Assembly: GCA_964447905.1 (NCBI GenBank)
Contig: CAYUUK010000007.1
Span: 513-64,512 of the forward strand
Direction of reading: 5' to 3'
Source of the DNA: an uncultured Pseudomonadales bacterium
GTDB lineage: Bacteria; Patescibacteriota; Microgenomatia; UBA1400; UBA1396
DNA length: 64,000 bases
Numbering within the stretch: position 1 is the first letter of the stretch; every line of letters begins with the position of its first letter. The position numbers were made by a program, and so were the translations under genes. Under the pieces are notes generated by a model that worked only from the letters and a program-made list of their open reading frames with translations, did no database searches and was not told where the DNA came from. Positions 1 through 41,707 of this stretch are shown piece by piece.

Positions 1-22
1 TGATATTTTAGATTTCTAGCTG

Positions 23-343
23 TTATCTAGGTGAGTTTTTGCCAAGTCTCTTTAGCATCAAAACAGCCGTACCACCAAGAACAAACGGATAAGCAACAAA
101 CAAAAATACAAATTCCATCAGTGAGAGTGCGGCGGTGCCGTTTGCGAGACGTGTGAGCCAATCATACCAGGTGCTGAGTCCGAATTGGGCGGCGAGGGAG
201 TTGGTGGCGATAGCCACTATAAGGATGGCCCAGCCAGTAAAAAAAGTGTGTCGGATGTGTTTCCAATTCATACCTTCTAGTGTAGCAAAACCTGCTACAC
301 TAGCACACTCACAAGTATGGCTCACCTCAAAAAGTACTACCAA
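23..343 (-). CDS. hypothetical hydrophobic (membrane) protein
   Basis: ORF with predicted TM stretches; no recognisable family; overlaps start of the next gene. Confidence 0.25.
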   Translation of the reverse strand: MVVLFEVSHTCECASVAGFATLEGMNWKHIRHTFFTGWAILIVAIATNSLAAQFGLSTWYDWLTRLANGTAALSLMEFVFLFVAYPFVLGGTAVLMLKRLGKNSPR

Positions 344-979
344 AAATACCTTGAAGATTTTGAAATCGATAGCTCCTTAGTAGGGCCACTTGTTGCGAAG
401 GGAAAGCAGCACCGTGTGCATCTGTATGGCAAGGATCAGGTTATAAAAATACCACGAGCTTCAATCTATATGCGCTCATATGGTCAGTTTACTGCAGATC
501 AGGTGGAGCGGGATATTGCTTTCATTGCGGAGCATTTTCCAGATTTAGTACTTCCAACACTGGTCTTGAGAGGAAACAAAGTTCCAGAACACTACTTATT
601 GCTGCAAGAGTACTTGCCGCACGCCGTTCCGGTAACCATGTATGCCGACAGTGTAGTGCGCGGTCAGTTACGGATACTGATGCAGCGGAATATGGAGTTA
701 TTGCGAAAGAAACACTTTTTTCTCGATATTTTCGGATACAAGGGGTTTACGGAGAGTTTGCGGGCGTTATGGCCGATGTCGAGCGCCCTCGCGCAGTTGA
801 CGAATGTACTGGTCAAAAGAACTCATGAAGAGTCTCCACGCTTAGTTCTGGTCGATACCAATTTGTCGCATCTAAATCAAAAGGGTGAGTTTCGACTTAC
901 GCATCGCGCGATCTATTTGTTTACTATTTTGCTCTCAATTGGTTTGTACTGGATTCACTTTCGCAAGATCGAGCGTTGA
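317..979 (+). CDS. hypothetical protein, possibly a small kinase-like fold
   Basis: 220 aa ORF. Motifs VIKIP and LVLVDTNL loosely resemble Kdo/RIO-type small kinases, with weak support. TGA stop. Confidence 0.35.
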   Translation: MAHLKKYYQKYLEDFEIDSSLVGPLVAKGKQHRVHLYGKDQVIKIPRASIYMRSYGQFTADQVERDIAFIAEHFPDLVLPTLVLRGNKVPEHYLLLQEYLPHAVPVTMYADSVVRGQLRILMQRNMELLRKKHFFLDIFGYKGFTESLRALWPMSSALAQLTNVLVKRTHEESPRLVLVDTNLSHLNQKGEFRLTHRAIYLFTILLSIGLYWIHFRKIER

Positions 980-983
980 CCAT

Positions 984-2826
984 GTTACACTATAGCTAGA
1001 AAGTAACAATGGTTGATGGTGCTGTTTTTTTTGATGTAGATGCAATGGGCTCTGAGCGCGGTGGGGATCGACGAGCGGAGACACTTCTCCACCATGAGAG
1101 AGTACAACAGCGAATTCAGCAGATAGACTCACTAGTGAGCGAACTCAGCGGTGCCAAAAGTACTGCAGAGCAAGCTGGCCTGTTTGCGGACTCTGCACTG
1201 GCGAGTGAGCTGCAAAGGTACCACGAGCAAAATAGTGAAATTGGTGCAGAAGATACAGAGAATGTTCAGAAACTTTCCGAGTACTTAAACGAAAACCCAC
1301 AAGTATTCATCGCAATTTTTCAGGATCTGGCGTTTACGGTGGCTGATTTTTTGCGTTCGCGAGTGAGTGAGCAAACGCTCATGCTGGAAGTAGAACATAT
1401 TCATGATGTGGTCGCTAACTGTGCCCGTGTCTTTCCAAACGAACCCGTCTTGCAGCTTATTGCGGCGGTACATGATATCTATAAATATTCGTCTCCAGAT
1501 CCTGAAGGTGCGGAAAAATTTGGCACAGCGCAACTGGGACTTCACGAGTTTATGAGCACGGTCCTCGGTGGTGAGGTTCTTGCTGCTGCCTTAGAGAAGC
1601 ATGATGTGAGCTCTGAACAAGTGGAGAGTGCCACTTTGGTAGCTCGGCGAGCAATTCTTACGCATGGAAAAGGGGAATTCCCAGAAGTAACCGCGGAGCA
1701 GCTAGCGCAAGGTGAGCGATATGCCATTGATTCAAATGACTCGTTTCAAAATGAAAACGAAGCACCGTATTTGCAGCCATTGTTTGGATCGTTGTATGTC
1801 CATACCCCATTAAAAGCGGTACCAAAACACTCCGTAACTGAGGCAAATGAAGTAGAGAGAATCATTGCCGGCATGAATGCACTTGACGCAATTACCGGCA
1901 CAACGTTACACTATAGCTAGAAAGTAACAATGGTTGATGATGCTGTTTTTTTTGATGTAGATGCAATGGGCTCTGAGCGCGGTGGGGATCGACGAGCGGA
2001 GACACTTCTCCACCATGAGAGAGTACAACAGCGAATTCAGCAGATAGACTCACTAGTGAGCGAACTCAGCGGTGCCAAAAGTACTGCAGAGCAAGCTGGC
2101 CTGTTTGCGGACTCTGCACTGGCGAGTGAGCTGCAAAGGTACCACGAGCAAAATAGTGAAATTGGTGCAGAAGATACAGAGAATGTTCAGAAACTTTCCG
2201 AGTACTTAAACGAAAACCCACAAGTATTCATCGCAATTTTTCAGGATCTGGCGTTTACGGTGGCTGATTTTTTGCGTTCGCGAGTGAGTGAGCAAACGCT
2301 CATGCTGGAAGTAGAACATATTCATGATGTGGTCGCTAACTGTGCCCGTGTCTTTCCAAACGAACCCGTCTTGCAGCTTATTGCGGCGGTACATGATATC
2401 TATAAATATTCGTCTCCAGATCCTGAAGGTGCGGAAAAATTTGGCACAGCGCAACTGGGACTTCACGAGTTTATGAGCACGGTCCTCGGTGGTGAGGTTC
2501 TTGCTGCTGCCTTAGAGAAGCATGATGTGAGCTCTGAACAAGTGGAGAGTGCCACTTTGGTAGCTCGGCGAGCAATTCTTACGCATGGAAAAGGGGAATT
2601 CCCAGAAGTAACCGCGGAGCAGCTAGCGCAAGGTGAGCGATATGCCATTGATTCAAATGACTCGTTTCAAAATGAAAACGAAGCACCGTATTTGCAGCCA
2701 TTGTTTGGATCGTTGTATGTCCATACCCCATTAAAAGCGGTACCAAAACACTCCGTAACTGAGGCAAATGAAGTAGAGAGAATCATTGCCGGCATGAATG
2801 CACTTGACGCAATTACCGGCACAACG
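984..2826 (+). repeat. perfect tandem direct duplication, 2 x 921 bp
   Basis: The string gttacactatagctagaaagtaacaatggttgatg recurs at 984 and 1905. Both copies translate identically over 297 aa except G4D (ggt vs gat). The junction reads acaacg|ttacac. Confidence 0.9.
1009..1920 (+). pseudogene. 5-prime fragment copy of the downstream gene 1930..3222, created by the tandem duplication
   Basis: First 297 aa identical to 1930..3222 apart from G4D. It then reads LHYS-stop across the duplication junction. Confidence 0.5.
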
Positions 2827-3222
2827 CATCAGGCCTTTTTAAAGTACAACAATGCCTACTCCAGTGAACAGGTTGCTAGCTACGGCAGTGTTGGTGAGTA
2901 TTTCTCTGGGGCCCTTTTACGGTCCTTTGACTCTACAATGGCGGTAGATGCGCTCCAGTGGCTCGCGAACGATGCGGTTGCACCGAGCATCTACGAGCAA
3001 AACGAACTCAAGGCGATGATTGCTGAAAATACAAACATCAAAAATGCTCTGCAGGCTCAAGCAAATGAAATATCGAGTAATCATGAGGTGGCGAAGTGTT
3101 TCGACGCGCTTCGAGTGGCTGTAAGCAGCTCTGATGTAGAGGCCATTTCGACTGAGCGGCGTGCATTTGATGACGCACTGCAAGGATTTATTGGGGCAGT
3201 TGTTCTCTCGCTCGAGTGGTAG
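1930..3222 (+). CDS. hypothetical acidic cytoplasmic protein (orphan, no recognisable domain)
   Basis: 430 aa ORF, helical and acidic in composition, no TM; full-length copy of the duplicated gene. Confidence 0.55.
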   Translation: MVDDAVFFDVDAMGSERGGDRRAETLLHHERVQQRIQQIDSLVSELSGAKSTAEQAGLFADSALASELQRYHEQNSEIGAEDTENVQKLSEYLNENPQVFIAIFQDLAFTVADFLRSRVSEQTLMLEVEHIHDVVANCARVFPNEPVLQLIAAVHDIYKYSSPDPEGAEKFGTAQLGLHEFMSTVLGGEVLAAALEKHDVSSEQVESATLVARRAILTHGKGEFPEVTAEQLAQGERYAIDSNDSFQNENEAPYLQPLFGSLYVHTPLKAVPKHSVTEANEVERIIAGMNALDAITGTTHQAFLKYNNAYSSEQVASYGSVGEYFSGALLRSFDSTMAVDALQWLANDAVAPSIYEQNELKAMIAENTNIKNALQAQANEISSNHEVAKCFDALRVAVSSSDVEAISTERRAFDDALQGFIGAVVLSLEW

Positions 3223-3253
3223 ATATTTTGTTTTTGTATGCTACTATTCAGGC

Positions 3254-3529
3254 ATGACACATAAGAATGCATCTGAACGCGGACTTGAACCAGTTTCTCC
3301 TCGAGAGTATGACGAGATTCCAGAATTTGTGCGTACCGCACCGGAAACGAGCGAAGAAATACTCGCGCGCTGGCAAGACCCACAAGAATTCCAGAATGAT
3401 GTTGCAGCTGGAAAAGTAATCGACGCTGGCATTGGTACGATTGGTGGTGAGGAAGTCGTTCTGTTTTTCTTACCGGCTCCTGGGGATGATGATCAGACTG
3501 AATATGTGAATCATTTTGGAACCATATAG
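3254..3529 (+). CDS. hypothetical small protein, possibly interrupted by an in-frame TAG
   Basis: Internal ATG of ORF 3161..3529. The same frame stays open and protein-like for about 60 codons past the TAG, to 3712. Confidence 0.3.
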   Translation: MTHKNASERGLEPVSPREYDEIPEFVRTAPETSEEILARWQDPQEFQNDVAAGKVIDAGIGTIGGEEVVLFFLPAPGDDDQTEYVNHFGTI

Positions 3530-3736
3530 GCGCGCTACGTAGATGGCCAAATTATTGCTTGTCCAATTGTCTCTCTGCCGAGGGAACAGGGGAAAGAACT
3601 TTTGCGGGCTGTTGGTTGGCTTGAAAAAGAGAAAACCATACCCCAACATATTGGTGCATTCTTGCAGCAGATACTGGCATTTGTGCGGCGAGAGATTCGT
3701 TAGTTTTTTCTCATACCACCTTGCTACAATTACGGA

Positions 3737-4951
3737 ATGTCTCTCTTTGAAGCCTACACGAAAAAAACGGTATCCTACTCCGATTCTCTGAGTGGTAAGA
3801 ATTTTCGTTTCACCGTTTCCCAAGAGCTGTTTAGTTCTCAGTCAGTTGATCTAGTAACGCAACGCCTGTTGCGAGCACTTTCCTACGCAAAAGTGAGTGG
3901 GTACCGTAAAATTCTCTATCTAGGATGTGGCTACGGACCTCTCGGTATTGTGCTTCAGCAGCGTGAGCCAGACTCAGAAGTACATTTTGTTGATCGTGAT
4001 GCACTCGCTCTCGAGTTTACGCGTATGAATGCGCAGCTGAATGCAGTTCAGCAGAAAAAAGAGTACGCCTGCCTCGGCTATGATGGTATTTCTGAGAGTG
4101 ATTTCGATCTGATAGTTTCCAATATTCCGGCCAAAGTTGGGCCAGAAGTACTTCGCCACATGCTCTTGGACGGGCGGTATTGCATGCAGGAGAACGGCAC
4201 TGTGGCGGTGGTGGTTATCGAACCAATAGCTGCGTTTTGCCGTGAAGTGTTACAAGCAGATGACAGCGTTGACCTTTTCTTCGAACGAACGTGGCCTGGG
4301 CATACGGTGTTTATCTATCGGTTTGTTGGTCAGTCAAAAGCCACGGAGTATATATCTGCCCAGGAGCGAGGTCTGTTTGCGCGGGGCAAGTACCCGCTTC
4401 GGTTTCGGGGAAAAGAGTTTCAGATGGATGTAAGCCATGACATCGCCGAGTTTTCGCAACTGAGCTTTGATACTCGATTGATTTTGCAAGCGCTTCCCAA
4501 GCTCCCGCAACAAAAAAAGCAGGCAGTATTTCTTTTTCCTGGGCTAGGACACCTAGCAGTAGCCGCAGCCTCATTTTTACGACCAGACTCCACAACCCTT
4601 ATTGACCGGGACTTACTCGCCCTACAAACTACAAAGGCTAATCTGGTCCGCTCTGGCATACCACAAGAGAAGATTGTCTCACTCCATCAGGCTGATTTTT
4701 CGGTACCTCTGGCGCAGGAAGTAGATCTTATTTTTGGTGTTTTGCCAGAGAAAACTTCAGTTGAGGTTCTGTCTCTTTGGAAAGATCAGATTGAACGCCA
4801 ATTAGTTGCAGGAGGCACAGCCGTATTTGCATCGAGCTCAACGGCTATTACACGCTGGTTAGATGAATTATCTCGCACCCACGGATTTCGGATTTTGGAT
4901 CGCGAGAAAAATAAAGGTCGAAGTCGACTTATAGTACAAAAAAAGAAGTAA
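3737..4951 (+). CDS. SAM-dependent rRNA (guanine-N2) methyltransferase, RsmC/RlmG-like tandem methyltransferase
   Basis: LGCGYGPLG SAM-binding motif; VSNIP (NPPY-like) motif; a second degenerate methyltransferase repeat in the C-terminal half. Confidence 0.6.
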   Translation: MSLFEAYTKKTVSYSDSLSGKNFRFTVSQELFSSQSVDLVTQRLLRALSYAKVSGYRKILYLGCGYGPLGIVLQQREPDSEVHFVDRDALALEFTRMNAQLNAVQQKKEYACLGYDGISESDFDLIVSNIPAKVGPEVLRHMLLDGRYCMQENGTVAVVVIEPIAAFCREVLQADDSVDLFFERTWPGHTVFIYRFVGQSKATEYISAQERGLFARGKYPLRFRGKEFQMDVSHDIAEFSQLSFDTRLILQALPKLPQQKKQAVFLFPGLGHLAVAAASFLRPDSTTLIDRDLLALQTTKANLVRSGIPQEKIVSLHQADFSVPLAQEVDLIFGVLPEKTSVEVLSLWKDQIERQLVAGGTAVFASSSTAITRWLDELSRTHGFRILDREKNKGRSRLIVQKKK

Positions 4952-4998
4952 GATATTTTTGGTTTTTACCAGGATATATTGTTTCTTTTTGATGGTGG

Positions 4999-5199
4999 GT
5001 GTACGCTAAAGCTATGTCCAAATCTTCATCTTTTCGTCCATCATGTGGTGATGCTGTCTACAGCCTGGGTTTGATTGGCGCGCTGATTTACTATTTGACC
5101 CACGCCGGAAATATTACCGAAGGTTTATGGGGGATTGGTAAAGCGCTCTTTTGGCCAGCCTATTTACTGTACAAACTCCTTGAAATGTGGCAAGTATGA
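4999..5199 (+). CDS. small hydrophobic protein
   Basis: 66 aa ORF with one or two TM segments; its stop overlaps the next start (ATGA). Confidence 0.3.
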   Translation: MYAKAMSKSSSFRPSCGDAVYSLGLIGALIYYLTHAGNITEGLWGIGKALFWPAYLLYKLLEMWQV

Positions 5200-5585
5200 C
5201 CAGAAAAAAGATTGTATTAATCCTTGGCGGTACTGCTGCTGGGGCTCTAGTGTTTGGTTTTCTCACTTTTGTGGCCGCAAGTATCTGGATTGGCTCAGCT
5301 GTACAGAAAAACTGCCGCGTAGCGGTTGAGAAATACGGTGGAGAGTGCGTAGACGCTCTCGTGAGTGAGTTCACTGATCCCTCGCAGACCTATACCGAGA
5401 GAAACGACGCCATCTGGGCGCTGGGTCAACTCGGAGATGAGAAAGCGCTGTCTGTTTTGCAAGCGTATTACACAGGAGAGATGGAGAAAACTGCGTATTC
5501 AGAAGAAATTTCTCAATACGAACTCAGTAAAGCAATTCAATTGCTAGAGTCTGGTTTTAACCCGACCCACTGGTTCCGTTTCTAG
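5196..5585 (+). CDS. membrane-anchored HEAT/PBS-lyase-repeat protein
   Basis: N-terminal TM; AIWALGQLGDEKALSVL is a HEAT-like repeat signature. Confidence 0.45.
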   Translation: MTRKKIVLILGGTAAGALVFGFLTFVAASIWIGSAVQKNCRVAVEKYGGECVDALVSEFTDPSQTYTERNDAIWALGQLGDEKALSVLQAYYTGEMEKTAYSEEISQYELSKAIQLLESGFNPTHWFRF

Positions 5586-5602
5586 ATTCTCTCTGTTCTT
5601 GG

Positions 5603-7664
5603 TTATTTTTTTAGAGGTAGTTTCTTGGCGAGGAGTGTCGCTATTCCCAGTGTGGGGAAGAATGCCATGAGGACCCAATACGTTTGCGCTTGGGGTGATT
5701 GAAACGGAACCGAAAGTGTATTCCAAGCCAGTTGGAGCAGAGCTGATGGGTTCTGTACGAGTTCTTTTTTGTTTGGGAAGTACACGGTATAGAATCGAGT
5801 TATACCTTGTTCGCCTATCCAGAGTGAGACGCTTGGAATGGGTGTATCGACTGCTAGTGACAGGGCATAAGCCTGGCCTTTGGAATCAGCTTGTATTGGT
5901 AAGCCAATGGGGAAATTTCGGCCGTCATGCAAGATAAGCAGACTGTGACGACTTGTGGTGATAGTTTCCGTATTTTTGAGGATTGAGGTGACGAGATATG
6001 GTATGCCTTGGTTTTTTTCTTCCTCTGTTTCTTCTCGGAGGCGGCGATCAAGAGAAACGAGGATCATCCCCAAGTTGTCTTGGTATGCCGTGAATGGCAC
6101 AGTAACCGATTCTTCCATGAGCGAGATACGATCTTGGGAAATGGTTTCTTCGTGAGCATGTACAAAAGCCGTAAGTGGCAGCGGCGGTCTTTGTCCCACC
6201 CAGACCACCAGTGTGGCAAACACGAGCAGAATGACAAAAAGATACCAGGGATGAAAACGAAAACGCGGTGTGCGCAGGGATTTCCACCACTGCGTAAAGG
6301 TTTGCTGGAAGTAGTTGGGTCGTAGAAATTCCGAGGTTTCTTTATTGGCCTGTTTGCCGCGTGAGAAGTACGGTTTTTCGAGATAGGTGTTGAGACCAAT
6401 ACTTAAAAACAGAGTCAGTGCTGCTGATATTCCAGCAATCCAGAGTGTGCTGAGAAGTGAAGTAGGGGCCCCATTTTTGGTAAAAATCTCAATGGCAATC
6501 GTGTGTGTGAGGTAGATCGAGTAGCTCAGTGTTCCCAACCACACGAGCAGTTTGGATTCAAAGAACTGGGCGAACCGATTCTTTCCGAGAGTCACTGCCA
6601 GCACACCAGCTAGCGGAAGAGCCAGGAGCATCTGAATGGCGCTGTGTGAGTAGCTAGGGAAAAATGTGAAGAGAACCGGGGTGCCGAGAAGTATGATGGT
6701 AGCTAGGCTCGCGCCGATGAGGGAGCGTTCTTGCATGAAGCGGTGGAAGAAATGCCAAGATGGTGGGCGAGTGATTTCCCACTGCGCTACCAAATAACCC
6801 ATGATGAAGTAAACAAAGTACCCGATATTGAGAATATGAAATCCAAGCACTGAGTGTGCCGCTAATGAGAGTCCATAGAAACTAATGAGGCTAGCGATCA
6901 CGGCGAGTGTTTGGAGCACTCTATTGCGAGTAAGCGCAAAAAAGCGGAACAGTGGCAGGAGGAGAATTGGGTACAAAAGATAAAATAAAACCTCAATGGT
7001 CAGACTCCAATACACGCCGTCAAGTTGACCAATATAGACGCCAAACGGCAATGTCATGGTGCCGTTTACGGCCACAGTGGCTACCATCTGGAGCCATTTG
7101 CTCCACTCAAGATAAAACACTGGTGCCGGAGTCATTGGTAGAAGGAAGACATACCACAGTGCCACCGCGATTTGGAGAGCAAAGAATGTGAAGAAGAGTG
7201 CTTTTTCGATTGGTGCTTCGGCTGCGCTTCTTTGTATTTTTCGCCACAATGTGCCAAAGCTCCACGCTACTCCCAGGACAATAACCGAGACAACCAGTGG
7301 ATTCATATATTCCCAGAAAAAACGTATACAACCCAGACTCACAACCATTCCAAGAAGTGGGGGAAAAACGCGAGCGTAGCGTTTTAGCCAGAATGACCAG
7401 ACATTGGGAATCGTGCCGTACAGCTTGCCAATGAGGAAGCCACTCAATAAAAAGAGAAAAATGACCCCAGTTTTGCCATTCTGTGTGAGGATTTGATGCA
7501 GAAAAAAAGAGCTCATTGGGAAGTGCCGCACCAAGTGGAGCGAGTCGTAAGTGGTTCAGAAAAACAAGGATAACCGCAAAGCCGCGTAATCCGTCGAGTG
7601 CGAGAATTCTGGGACGAGAACGAACGTTTTTGTTACTCATGTTGAATTCGTTTTTTGACAACAC
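5603..7664 (-). pseudogene. acyltransferase family 3 (OafA/YrhL-like) membrane protein, frame broken at a T7 run
   Basis: N-terminal motif RILALDGLRGFAVILVFLNH is in the frame of ORF 7107..7664. The FLFLLSGFLIG...WLKRYARVFP core is in the frame of ORF 5603..7534. Removing one T from the T7 run (plus-strand A7 at 7502-7508) joins them as ...PNELFFLHQILTQNGKTGVIFLFLLSGFLIG. Confidence 0.6.
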
Positions 7665-7734
7665 TCATGACAGCATCATAGCACTTTTTTCATCCGCATT
7701 TTATGCAAAACCCAAATGGGTATATCATAGAGTC

Positions 7735-9534
7735 ATGAAGAAACTTTTCCATGTGTTGGCAGCGTGTGCTGTATTTGTGAGTACAGTCGCGCCAGTGTTT
7801 GCTGTGGAAAGCATTGCAAGTTTTCAGTCGCAAATACAGGTTTTTCCAGATTCAGATTTACAGATTACTGAGCGAATTCTGTATACAACTACGGAAGAAA
7901 AGCACGGTATTTATCGCTATATTCCGGAGCGCTACGCTCGCTCTGGTTGGAATCAACAGGCAAGAATTCACGTTGACTCCGTCGCAGATTTTTCAAGTGA
8001 ACCAATTCCGTATGAGCTTTCACGCGAGAGTGGAAATGTGGTTTTGAAAATTGGTGATCCAGATACCACGTTTGTGGGGGAGCAAGAGTATGAGATTCAG
8101 TACACTGTGCAGAATGGCGTACAGTTTTTGCGTTCTGAGCAAGTGCCAGACAGTGATTTAGAGGGTGCTCCGTACTTACCTGAGTTGTACTGGGACATTA
8201 CTGGAGAGGGCTGGCAAGTGCCGATTGCGAGTGTGGCTGCGGAGGTGCGCGCGCCGCACGCCGGCGTGCGGCGCGCGCAGTGCTACTCCGGAGCCTATGG
8301 CGGTGATGATCAGCTCTGCCAGGTGATTATCACCGATGCGGGTGAGGCCGTGCAATTCATGTACACCGAAACAATTTCTGAGGGCGATAACATGACTGTC
8401 GCCGTGCAATTTGATCCCACCGCCGCGTGGGAATACCCTACAGAGCAAGAGCTGTGGTGGCGTCGAGTGCGCGAGAATGCTTTGATTTTGCCACTCTTTT
8501 TACCAGGGAGTATCCTTGTCTTTTCGTGGTGGAAGTGGGGACGAGATCGCGAGTTTGTGTCTTGGAATGTGTGGAACGACAGCGATGATCGACCGCAGCG
8601 CTGGGCACCACTCTTTTCTCGCCGCCAAGTGCCGTTTGCGTATGAGCCACCAACAGACCTCACTCCTGGTCAATCTGGTGCTATGCTCGATAATCGTGTC
8701 GATGCTCAAGATGTTATTGCCGAGATTCTGGATTTGGCAAGAAAAAAGTTTCTACGTATTGAAGCCGTTGAGAAGAAAAAGATGCTTTGGGGAAAGGAAA
8801 CAGACTATCGGTTCGTGCGACTGAAAAAATCAGATTCTGGTTTGCCAGAATACCAATCATACTTGCTCGAACACCTGTTTCCGAAAGATGCAGAAGAAAG
8901 CACACTTTCTGAGCTGAAAGGGAGTTTTTCCACCCACTTTGCCAAGGTGCAGCAGCAGTTAATGAGGTCCCTAGTCGCCGCAGGCTACAACCGCCACAAT
9001 CCAACACAAACGCGTGGTGGAGTATTTGGCTTAGCCATCATTTTGAGTGGTGCCGGTTTTGTATGGAGTTTCGTCTTGTTAGAGAGAGGGCTGTATTGGG
9101 GGTTAGGTCTGGCGCTGGTGTCTGGTGTGGTCAGTCTCGCTCTGGCGGCAGTTTTTTCAGTTCGCACGGCTCGAGGAAGAAATGCCTACTGGCGTGCCCG
9201 CGGCCTGAAGAAAATGATCCAAGCCGGGGCGTGGCGGCAGGAGATTCAAGAAAAACACCTCTTTATTGAAGAAGTGTTCCCATATGCGGTTGCGTACGGA
9301 GTGGTCAAGAAACTCAGTACGGACATGGAAGATTTACAGGTTGCACCGCCAGAATATTTGTCGAACTCCGCTCTGGTGCCATTTACCACTGCACATTTTG
9401 TGCAGCATTTTTCAGAAACAGCCGCTCAATCACTCTCGTATAATCCCAATTCAGGAAGCTACAGCTCAGGGTCTGGTTTTTCTGGCGGGTTTTCTGGAGG
9501 CGGCGGCGGAGGTGGCGGCGGTAGGAGTTGGTAG
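7735..9534 (+). CDS. DUF2207-family membrane protein
   Basis: Signal peptide MKKLFHVLAACAVFVSTVAPVFA; YIPERY region; two TM; C-terminal Gly-rich tail SGSGFSGGFSGGGGGGGGG typical of DUF2207. Confidence 0.6.
   Translation: MKKLFHVLAACAVFVSTVAPVFAVESIASFQSQIQVFPDSDLQITERILYTTTEEKHGIYRYIPERYARSGWNQQARIHVDSVADFSSEPIPYELSRESGNVVLKIGDPDTTFVGEQEYEIQYTVQNGVQFLRSEQVPDSDLEGAPYLPELYWDITGEGWQVPIASVAAEVRAPHAGVRRAQCYSGAYGGDDQLCQVIITDAGEAVQFMYTETISEGDNMTVAVQFDPTAAWEYPTEQELWWRRVRENALILPLFLPGSILVFSWWKWGRDREFVSWNVWNDSDDRPQRWAPLFSRRQVPFAYEPPTDLTPGQSGAMLDNRVDAQDVIAEILDLARKKFLRIEAVEKKKMLWGKETDYRFVRLKKSDSGLPEYQSYLLEHLFPKDAEESTLSELKGSFSTHFAKVQQQLMRSLVAAGYNRHNPTQTRGGVFGLAIILSGAGFVWSFVLLERGLYWGLGLALVSGVVSLALAAVFSVRTARGRNAYWRARGLKKMIQAGAWRQEIQEKHLFIEEVFPYAVAYGVVKKLSTDMEDLQVAPPEYLSNSALVPFTTAHFVQHFSETAAQSLSYNPNSGSYSSGSGFSGGFSGGGGGGGGGRSW
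8246..8279. repeat. 34 bp perfect GC-rich palindrome inside the DUF2207 coding sequence
   Basis: tgcgcgcgccgcacgcc|ggcgtgcggcgcgcgca reads identically on both strands. Confidence 0.9.
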
Positions 9535-39949: not shown

Positions 39950-41707
39950 TTACTCAATGTACTGGAATGAACCCTCGACCACTCGAAGCCCTGGAATAGG
40001 GGTGGAAGAAGAAGTAGCTGATGGTGTTTCACTGGTTTGTGCTGGTTGGAGGGTGTTGATGAGCCGGCGCAGCGTAGCAATTCCAAATGCGAGTCCAGTT
40101 CGAGCGACGGTTAAGGAGTGGTCGATGGAAAACTCTCCATCTTCTTCTTTGAGTTCGATAGCAAATTGGGTGAGTGTCTTTTGTGGCTGATCCTGACGAT
40201 TGGCTTCAACAGTACCTGTCGTTTGGGGTCCCTGAATAATTTCAATGTTGAGCTGTCTATTCTTAAAGAAATTCTTTCCTTGGTGAATGCGCGCTTCATA
40301 GGCGTATCCGTTTTCTGTCCATTGGAGTGCATACCCCTTGGAGGGGAGATTGCTCGGATTTTCTGGAGTTGTTGTTTCTGCGTTTTCTTCACAGAGGTTC
40401 CAGAGCTCTTGCGTTTGCTCCATGAGTTCTTCGGCATCCAGTCGAGCGTTTAGTTCCTGGAGGGTAAGGAGGTCGACATCGAGTTGGGTGAGAGGCCGCT
40501 CTTTTTGGCGTGGTTTTGCTTCGCGGTACTGGTAGGTTTGTTCGTTGGTTTTTTCTACGAGGGGATACAATTGCTCGGGCAAGAGGTACTCATGACGTGA
40601 AAGTGTCTCGGTTTTATTTGTATCTGAATTACGTTGAGTAACAGTGACTGTGATCTTTTTTTTGTCAGAAGAAGGTTGAATGATCAGATTTGTTCGTTCG
40701 CCAAGTGGAATGAGAGTGTGCTGGCTTTTAGTAATTTCATGAAGGAATCGCGTGCCTGGTTCATTTTTTACCCTGTACATATTAGGATTATTTTTTCTCT
40801 CTATAAGAACATTACTCGTGCCGCGCATGCCCGGACCTATTCCTAAAGATTCTTCTAAAGGTTGTGAAAAATATAACTCGATGTCCCAGAAGAGAGGGGA
40901 CTCAGCGTTCTTGTCATCGGTTTTTTCTCTTGTAAAAGTTACTTTCTCTCTTATTCGTGGATCACTAAATATTTTTGGTTGCTCTTCTTTTGGGATTGGG
41001 CGTGAAGTTTCTTCTAGGAATTCCTTCTTAGACATCGGCCAAAGTAAGTATGGTGAGTCTAGTTTGGCTATAGGTTTAGGATTTTCTAGATGCTGCCGTA
41101 TTACTGATTGTCTTGTTAGATGAGTGTCTACTTTGCCTAATACAAATTGTAAGGATTCTTGCAGTGATGGATCTTGTAAAAGAACTGGCTCTTTTGCTTT
41201 ATTGGCACTGTAGCCAGTATTAACGAAATACACTGATCCACTCGGTGCGACCGACGGATCAACCGCGGCGTGAACGAACTGAGTCTTAGTAAGGAGTTGG
41301 GTTGGCACTCCATTTTCAAATTGAATTACTGAGATATCGGCATGCCAGTGTGGTGAGTCAGAAGATGATTGCGCTGCCTTTTTTGCTATTTTGAACTGGA
41401 AGCCGCGGGTGCCTTCCTTGGTTCTCCATTTGTAAAATATCAAAATACCTTCGTTTTTTTCAATTTCTGCACCATTCGAAATAATTTCATTAACGATGTC
41501 ATTCTTTACAATTTGGTCTATCAATTGAGCTATTTTTTGAATGCTTGGCTCTGCCTCAGCCTCAACAAGTTTAAAGTTTCTCCCTTCAGTAAGGGGAACG
41601 AAATCAGGAAATGCTTTTTTGGCAGGGCTCTCCTTGGGCCAGTACGCAAGGTTTGGTCCTGGGTATTCACGGACGGTTGGTGTGCGCTTTCGAATTGCTT
41701 TTACCAT
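39950..41707 (-). CDS. hypothetical protein (orphan), low GC, divergent from lexA
   Basis: 585 aa ORF, no recognisable domain, no TM; GC is visibly lower than the surroundings. Confidence 0.45.
   Translation of the reverse strand: MVKAIRKRTPTVREYPGPNLAYWPKESPAKKAFPDFVPLTEGRNFKLVEAEAEPSIQKIAQLIDQIVKNDIVNEIISNGAEIEKNEGILIFYKWRTKEGTRGFQFKIAKKAAQSSSDSPHWHADISVIQFENGVPTQLLTKTQFVHAAVDPSVAPSGSVYFVNTGYSANKAKEPVLLQDPSLQESLQFVLGKVDTHLTRQSVIRQHLENPKPIAKLDSPYLLWPMSKKEFLEETSRPIPKEEQPKIFSDPRIREKVTFTREKTDDKNAESPLFWDIELYFSQPLEESLGIGPGMRGTSNVLIERKNNPNMYRVKNEPGTRFLHEITKSQHTLIPLGERTNLIIQPSSDKKKITVTVTQRNSDTNKTETLSRHEYLLPEQLYPLVEKTNEQTYQYREAKPRQKERPLTQLDVDLLTLQELNARLDAEELMEQTQELWNLCEENAETTTPENPSNLPSKGYALQWTENGYAYEARIHQGKNFFKNRQLNIEIIQGPQTTGTVEANRQDQPQKTLTQFAIELKEEDGEFSIDHSLTVARTGLAFGIATLRRLINTLQPAQTSETPSATSSSTPIPGLRVVEGSFQYIE

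Follow-up and report, generated by a model that had tools for sequence, protein, structure and literature searches.

Structure of the duplicated locus

The window, which is the whole stretch of 64,000 nucleotides that was analysed, contains near one end two adjacent copies of a 921-bp unit, and these quite probably result from a genuine, recent and illegitimate head-to-tail duplication carried by the sequenced DNA, the junction being deduced from the ends of contigs in a second assembly. Base-by-base comparison of the window with itself at an offset of 921 nt aligned positions 985-1905 with 1906-2826 at an identity of 920/921, head-to-tail and with no spacer between the two copies. The same pair was recovered by a repeat search of the window. 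The main elements of the locus are the following.

985..1905, forward strand: copy 1 of the 921-bp unit, comprising a 24-nt leader and codons 1-299 (offset-921 comparison)
1906..2826, forward strand: copy 2 of the 921-bp unit, continuous with the unique 3' portion of the gene
1009..1920, forward strand: truncated ORF of 303 aa, residues 1-299 followed by LHYS and TAG (ORF list)
1930..3222, forward strand: intact gene of 430 aa, acidic product (ORF list)
1900..1911, forward strand: novel junction acaacg/ttacac (1905/1906), flanking repeats absent, microhomology of 1 nt (G)
1019 (G) versus 1940 (A), forward strand: only mismatch between the copies, GGT to GAT, Gly4 to Asp4 (offset-921 comparison)

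The limits of the unit are defined to within 1 nt, an extra G being shared by positions 984, 1905 and 2826. Outside of these limits identity drops sharply on both sides, the 60-nt flanks agreeing with the respective ends of the unit at 14/60 and 17/60 positions, which is the random level. In the 64 kb, 873 25-mers are repeated and every one of them recurs at offset 921, indicating that the 921-bp repeat is unique in the window and not the result of chance; it is the sole repeat of at least 25 nt found there. Tandem Repeats Finder reported no array at this place because the longest period it was allowed, 500, is below 921. The 64 kb contain no Ns. Several elements of the preliminary description are consistent with these results, namely the extent given as 984-2826, which is correct since the shared G at 984/1905/2826 allows a shift of 1 nt, the 921-bp head-to-tail unit itself, recovered here at 920/921 in the offset-921 comparison, and the attribution of a separate leader and start codon to each copy, the same 24-nt leader plus ATG being found in both.

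The unit starts 5-6 nt past the TGA (979) of the upstream gene and ends inside the next gene, so that it contains no complete gene. Since it begins after the upstream stop codon and ends within the gene that it duplicates, no gene was disrupted. The 303-aa ORF and the 430-aa protein are identical over residues 1-299 except for G4D. The LHYS-stop end of the 303-aa ORF is read across acaacg/ttacac, and its TAG is separated by 9 nt from the ATG of the 430-aa gene. The 430-aa protein has a pI of 4.55, with 66 D+E residues vs 29 K+R. Thus the read-through of copy 1 into LHYS-stop (ORF 1009-1920), the 430-aa protein of copy 2 (ORF 1930-3222) and the acidic character of the latter (pI 4.55), all of which had been proposed beforehand, were found again.

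The single difference between the copies

The one visible difference that had been reported, G4D, is also the only one detected here (G1019 vs A1940 only). It is located 35 nt away from the left limit of the unit or, in the second copy, from the junction, and a T8 run begins 6 nt downstream of position 1019. The chance for a random position to be this near a unit boundary is about 4-8%. At the protein level, G4D is probably neutral since residue 4 belongs to an N-terminus that is unconserved in the family alignment and of low confidence in the structure model.

In a short-read graph assembly, the interiors of both copies would be spelled from one graph edge and would be identical by construction, and differences would be assignable to one copy only if they lie no further from a boundary than roughly one k-mer or one read. 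The visible SNP sits exactly where such phasing is possible, 35 nt from the junction. The copies may diverge more than the contig shows. As both copy interiors would derive from one graph edge, the 920/921 identity should not be used for dating the event. The G/A difference could have arisen between the paralogues, could be polymorphic among strains or could be a scar of error-prone synthesis left by the event. The earlier argument that this SNP implies two distinct templates is consequently kept in part only: two templates are possible, but they could belong to two strains of the metagenome.

Contig ends in the read graph of a public run

Two near-identical copies lying side by side could also be produced after assembly from a locus that is truly single-copy, either by an unmerged 921-bp overlap, by the concatenation of strain variants or by a duplication introduced at gap closing. 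An unmerged overlap would yield just the layout observed, with left flank and unit followed by unit and right flank; the sole mismatch lies 35 nt from the would-be contig end, and the repeat is situated at about 1.5-3.7 kb from an end of the deposited contig of 66,730 nt. On the other hand, the 64 kb are free of Ns and of any further repeat, and the contigs of the Logan k=31 assembly stop at 1013 and 2797, the exact bases expected from a graph that includes the junction, as described below.

In Logan, each SRA run is assembled alone in a k=31 de Bruijn graph (PMC12424806). According to the same source, k-mers seen once are dropped, the graph undergoes a SPAdes-like clean-up, and contigs of more than 150 bp with all 31-mers distinct are reported. 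Logan contigs of run SRR7048223 were located via the flanking genes, a methyltransferase (3737-4951) and an upstream ORF of 220 aa (317-979). The downstream contig L006 (SRR7048223_38833; 5,479 nt) corresponds to window 2797-8275 at 100% identity, and the upstream contig L007 (SRR7048223_65037; 1,525 nt) covers window 1-1013, also at 100% identity, with 512 nt more upstream. Their inner ends are as follows.

983..1013, forward strand: last 31-mer of L007, the contig ending at 1013, at a node of in-degree 2
2797..2827, forward strand: first 31-mer of L006, the contig starting where k-mer 2796-2826 has out-degree 2

In order to predict the contig ends, a k=31 graph was built from the window itself. 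In this graph, k-mer 984-1014 has two predecessors, so the upstream contig must end at 1013, and k-mer 2796-2826 has two successors, so the downstream contig must start at 2797. Both predicted ends were matched to the base by L007 and L006. A single-copy locus was rejected, as a k=31 assembly would run through it, whereas Logan breaks at both unit boundaries. Other candidate causes of the Logan breaks were also discarded: a SNP bubble would break the contig at 1018, and a deletion polymorphism would have the left contig end at 984, while the end observed is at 1013 in both cases.

Since the Logan ends are base-exact for a graph that includes the junction, the reads of SRR7048223 hold a second entry to the unit start and a second exit from the unit end. 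The junction path itself, 59 nt long (window 1876-1934) and below the reporting length of Logan, survived the clean-up of the graph, as deduced from the contig ends, which lend the junction strong though indirect support. The connection so indicated in the read graph of SRR7048223 removes the post-assembly readings, which are considered very unlikely. The preliminary description had placed genuine duplication and assembly artefact side by side; given the breaks at 1013/2797 in SRR7048223, the first is favoured and the second unlikely.

The Logan breaks reveal two predecessors and two successors and not the identity of these neighbours, a pattern that would also arise if the unit occurred in a second context, such as another strain or locus with different flanks, and had been mis-threaded as a tandem copy. 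This seems extremely improbable. A graph assembler could not have made up the direct end-to-start junction that the deposited contig carries. Members of the family are very scarce, a word search giving one cluster in 5.8 billion and the exhaustive search 30 representatives in 1.84 billion, and none of the collections searched showed the unit in a second context. Exact-protein look-ups returned no other contigs with the 430-aa, 303-aa or UvrB proteins, and in a large protein collection the 430-aa and 303-aa proteins came from one NCBI contig only. A literature search found no papers naming run SRR7048223.

The deposited contig was probably made from the reads of SRR7048223 themselves. If Logan and the deposited contig do use one read set, a junction made in vitro, for example by template switching during MDA or PCR and then amplified to an appreciable level, and so present in the reads but not in the genome, would be shared by both assemblies. 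Such a chimera at the library level is nevertheless quite unlikely, considering that the junction path survived singleton removal and a SPAdes-like low-coverage clean-up, that a second assembler followed this path, and that a head-to-tail geometry with the gene left intact is typical of in-vivo duplications. MDA chimeras, moreover, are mostly inverted, not direct. A genuine duplication in the sequenced DNA remains the preferred reading, two copies being the minimum allowed by the graph. The junction-spanning sequence is AATTACCGGCACAACGTTACACTATAGCTAG, and the sequence after the unit end is, per the tandem reading, ttacactatagc; the corresponding 40-mers are AATTACCGGCACAACGTTACACTATAGCTAGAAAGTAACA for the junction, CGAGCGTTGACCATGTTACACTATAGCTAGAAAGTAACA for the left flank and AATTACCGGCACAACGCATCAGGCCTTTTTAAAGTACAAC for the right flank.

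Formation of the junction

No direct repeat was found flanking the unit in an R-D-R-D-R arrangement (flank vs unit-end, 14/60 and 17/60), no 7-mers are common to both breakpoint neighbourhoods, and no inverted repeats of at least 8 nt link the breakpoints. An origin by homologous recombination was rejected, as there are no flanking repeats. The classification scheme of the 'Tandem' preprint (bioRxiv 10.64898/2026.05.22.727201) has a 'no HR signature' duplication class, and the 921-bp duplication falls in this class. Given the lack of a flanking repeat and a microhomology of 1 nt only, the joining would have been illegitimate rather than homologous, and RecA-independent.

In the mechanism proposed, position 1905 would have been joined to position 985 without homology, giving rise to the head-to-tail 921-bp duplication, and this joining would probably have taken place by template switching or by mis-joining between sister chromosomes. 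This would leave an extra copy truncated at its 3' end (303 aa), behind which the intact 430-aa gene keeps a 24-nt leader of its own. The original upstream promoter presumably serves both copies, and re-initiation would be possible across the 9 nt that separate TAG from ATG. In all likelihood the duplication is recent and either neutral or mildly costly, and recombination between the copies should remove it. Tandem duplications are unstable, vary in copy number and are rapidly lost without selection (PMC11721125); because of this instability, a fixed neutral tandem duplication is somewhat unexpected.

The junction also creates a promoter-like element, TTGACG-18-TACACT, at 1883-1912. It was rejected as a meaningful feature, such matches being at chance level, with 2 sites seen vs 6.9 expected in shuffles.

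The 430-aa protein belongs to a small family

When 1.84 billion representatives were searched exhaustively with phmmer, 30 homologues were obtained at E <=1e-3, of which 20 were at E <=1e-10. Their identity to the query ranges from 23 to 38%, and almost all have a length of 390-640 aa. On readable contigs the homologues are single genes located in unrelated neighbourhoods of small-genome-like bacteria, and no conserved operon context for the family was seen on these contigs. A word-indexed homology search retrieved only the protein's own cluster and, with a profile, one more match, P0028; the orphan status that this search hinted at was overturned by the exhaustive phmmer search. No relatives of the protein came up when the GTDB representative genomes and JGI metagenomes were scanned. 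No match for the 430-aa protein was obtained in Pfam, NCBIfam or PHROGs, nor in a PDB sequence search with the single 430-aa sequence; searching PDB with the family profile gave only non-significant matches (E >=0.058) to unrelated coiled-coil-like proteins.

In the 30-sequence alignment, H155, D156, K159, H179, E180, H219, G220 and D293 are invariant, and H130 (29/30), S183, E223, P225, G297, K305 (29/30) and Y306 (28/30) are nearly so. The corresponding codons in the intact copy are listed below.

2317..2808, forward strand: putative metal-binding core codons of the intact copy (columns invariant or 29/30)
2317-2319, forward strand: H130
2392-2397, forward strand: H155-D156
2464-2469, forward strand: H179-E180
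2584-2589, forward strand: H219-G220
2806-2808, forward strand: D293
2842..2847, forward strand: K305-Y306, motif SFxKYN, nearly invariant and just outside the duplicated unit

The core codons recur 921 nt upstream in copy 1. In HD-domain enzymes the ligands follow the arrangement H..HD..H..H..D, six of them denoting the two-metal kind. The ligand residues H...HD...D of the HD superfamily are thus present in the family, H155, D156, H179, H219 and D293 being invariant and H130 being found in 29/30 sequences. Sub-threshold matches to Pfam HD (PF01966) were obtained for 4/30 members in the homologous region. In P0012 and P0019, the Pfam HD match begins at the first conserved His and corresponds to query residues 129/130 to 208/219; the best member, P0019, reaches 18.7 bits vs the gathering cut-off of 22. 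The PADLOC Cas3 HD model matches residues 128-207 of the query itself, with E=0.0024.

An AlphaFold model computed from the family alignment, of high confidence (pLDDT 90, pTM 0.90), is nearly all-helical and displays an N-terminal helical region, a core with the conserved His and Asp residues and a C-terminal helical region. The highest-probability neighbours of this model in Foldseek are HD proteins, all with E >=0.04 and TM-scores <=0.5. In PDB these include 2dqb, a dNTP triphosphohydrolase (probability up to 0.57), and 7p1y, a small alarmone hydrolase (probability 0.54, TMt 0.48), as well as phosphodiesterases and 2ogi, again at E >=0.04. In BFVD, also at E >=0.04, B2ZXQ9 (probability 0.92) and A0A1V0SDY3 (probability 0.96, TMt 0.50) were retrieved, both being HD or metal-dependent phosphohydrolase proteins.

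Taken together, the conserved residues and the model suggest that the 430-aa protein represents a divergent HD-superfamily-like family, scoring below curated membership, and that it likely acts in the manner of HD enzymes. It is predicted to be an enzyme of the two-metal phosphohydrolase type, the class being suggested by the ligand pattern. The protein had previously been called an orphan with no recognisable domain, a claim that is not supported in view of the 30 homologues, the invariant H..HD..H..H..D pattern and the sub-threshold HD-type matches over the same region.

The truncated copy and its possible retention

Copy 2 (430 aa) is the native form of the gene, as its homologues each occur as one full-length gene, of 390-640 aa. 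The 303-aa form keeps all six predicted metal ligands, H130, H155, D156, H179, H219 and D293, its truncation point being six residues beyond D293, the last of them. It is deprived of K305, Y306 and the C-terminal helices (about 130 residues), and the loss of K305-Y306 is explained by the position of these codons just beyond the duplicated unit. The C-terminal region is present in every homologue found. As judged from sequence conservation, the 303-aa product would most likely be inactive, since the near-invariant K-Y motif and the ~130 C-terminal residues kept by all homologues are missing from it.

It can be considered, in line with a suggestion of the preliminary description, that the duplication, perhaps with three or more or a variable number of copies, is a selected amplification kept for dosage, for the truncated HD-core protein or for altered expression. 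Tandem repeats are lost fast without selection (PMC11721125), yet this one was abundant enough to assemble. The whole putative catalytic core is retained, with truncation 6 residues after D293, the graph also fits more than two copies, and the junction creates TTGACG-18-TACACT at 1883-1912. This explanation is unlikely, however, as every homologue retains its C-terminal part, K305/Y306 hardly vary, promoter-like matches are no commoner than expected by chance (2 vs 6.9 expected), there is no sign of a copy number above 2, and a partial duplication adds no dosage of an intact gene. That the partial duplication was selected for a new product, a truncated HD-core protein that might be a deregulated enzyme or might modulate the intact enzyme in a dominant manner, is decidedly improbable; if true, a gene would be seen here in the course of its birth from a partial tandem duplication, in an uncultivated bacterium with a small genome.

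Genomic context and significance

The 64-kb window is chromosomal and encodes UvrB, a class II aminoacyl-tRNA synthetase, FtsH and UDP-glucose dehydrogenase, together with many glycosyltransferases and one tRNA-Thr. Weak matches to T4SS-pilin, DUF4012 and DUF2207 were also observed in the window, along with many unassignable ORFs, and these would point to a Patescibacteria-like organism (candidate phyla radiation, CPR). The GTDB scan returned no relatives of the neighbouring methyltransferase.

The duplication described here is a known and ordinary kind of event, one more small illegitimate duplication, and would be of wider biological interest only if fixed, amplified or selected. From a methodological point of view, it illustrates that suspect duplications are checkable without the reads, the Logan k-mer assembly of a public run standing in for mapping, since contig ends lying exactly k-1 bases inside the repeat boundaries expose a junction. 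It also illustrates that in short-read graph assemblies a near-perfect identity of the copies cannot date a duplication. With regard to annotation, the 'orphan' can be provisionally assigned to a small HD-like family not described before, while the 303-aa ORF is better labelled a duplication-derived fragment than a separate gene.

Comparison with known systems

Among HD phosphohydrolases, the two-metal H..HD..H..H..D type is found in HD-GYP, YqeK and PhnZ/MIOX-like proteins. Like the HD phosphohydrolases (PF01966 and relatives), the 430-aa family presents H, HD, H, H and D in this order within an all-helical core. Unlike them, it has invariant residues of its own (K159, E180, G220, E223/P225 and SFxKYN) and long N- and C-terminal helical regions; against curated HD models all its matches are below threshold, TM-scores are <=0.5, and its gene neighbourhoods are not conserved.

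False assembly duplications resemble the present case by their adjacent near-identical copies, with one SNP, near a contig end. In contrast to duplications introduced after assembly, an independent de Bruijn assembly branches here at both unit boundaries. Compared with the usual amplifications, the 921-bp unit covers part of one gene and raises the dosage of no intact gene, and, unlike the cases described from amplification or experimental-evolution work, it comes from an uncultivated organism.

RecA-independent tandem duplications of bacteria usually range from several kb to hundreds of kb, whereas the present one measures 0.9 kb. Both are head-to-tail, with no spacer, no flanking repeat and a homology of zero to a few nt at the joint (here 1 nt), and in both the distal gene is left intact and instability of the arrangement is expected (PMC11721125).

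Frameshift in the Acyl_transf_3 gene

Downstream of the duplication, a 7-nt homopolymer (window 7502-7508) is the site of a frameshift that splits the reading frame of a gene with a Pfam match to Acyl_transf_3.

about 5603-7640, minus strand: frameshifted Acyl_transf_3 gene (Pfam match)

Removal of one base from this homopolymer restores an ORF of 678 aa and raises the Pfam match from 62 bits (profile positions 28-324) for the split gene to 93 bits (profile positions 2-324). Over the frameshift region, the sequence of L006, a contig of the independent Logan assembly of SRA run SRR7048223, is identical to the window, and the extra base is therefore present in the reads. Consequently, the frameshift is better read as a genuine pseudogene, or as an on/off variant of the slip-strand type, than as an error of assembly.

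L006 ends at position 8275, inside a palindrome, as expected of a de Bruijn graph when such a sequence is reached.

8246-8279: perfect GC-rich palindrome of 34 nt, core GCGCGCGCCGCACGCCGGCGTGCGGCGCGCGC, within the DUF2207 membrane-protein gene

ORFs without domain matches and strand organization

No domain match was obtained for the ORFs listed here, the first two in a Pfam search at E <= 1e-3 and the last two in Pfam and NCBIfam searches.

39950-41707, minus strand: large ORF, 585 aa
50119-53430, plus strand: large ORF, 1,103 aa
317-979: ORF upstream of the duplicated gene, 220 aa
3254-3529: ORF downstream of the duplicated gene, 91 aa

Both ORFs flanking the duplicated gene are unaltered on the Logan contigs. 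Regarding the window as a whole (1-64000), GC skew is above zero in all 2-kb bins, its cumulative value climbs monotonically and most of the long ORFs are carried by the plus strand. A single replichore appears to contain the entire window, the plus strand of which would be the leading one.

Promoter-like match at the duplication junction

Through the duplication junction, TTGACG from the unit end comes to precede TACACT from the unit start by 18 nt (window 1883-1912), which results in a 9/12 match to a sigma-70-like promoter ahead of the intact copy. Sites of this kind show no enrichment in this region, with 2 observed vs 6.9 expected from shuffles.

Genomic neighbourhoods of the family

Among the members of the protein family viewed in genomic context, no conserved neighbourhood hinting at a substrate was found. 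The most divergent of them, P0028 (643 aa), has an N-terminus longer by roughly 200 aa.

8001-9932 of contig L003 (GCA_964612735.1, CAZTEB010000020.1): P0028 region

The P0028 gene is flanked by genes for an M24 peptidase and an M29 peptidase, and other members are adjoined by TruB, MscL or glycosyltransferase genes.
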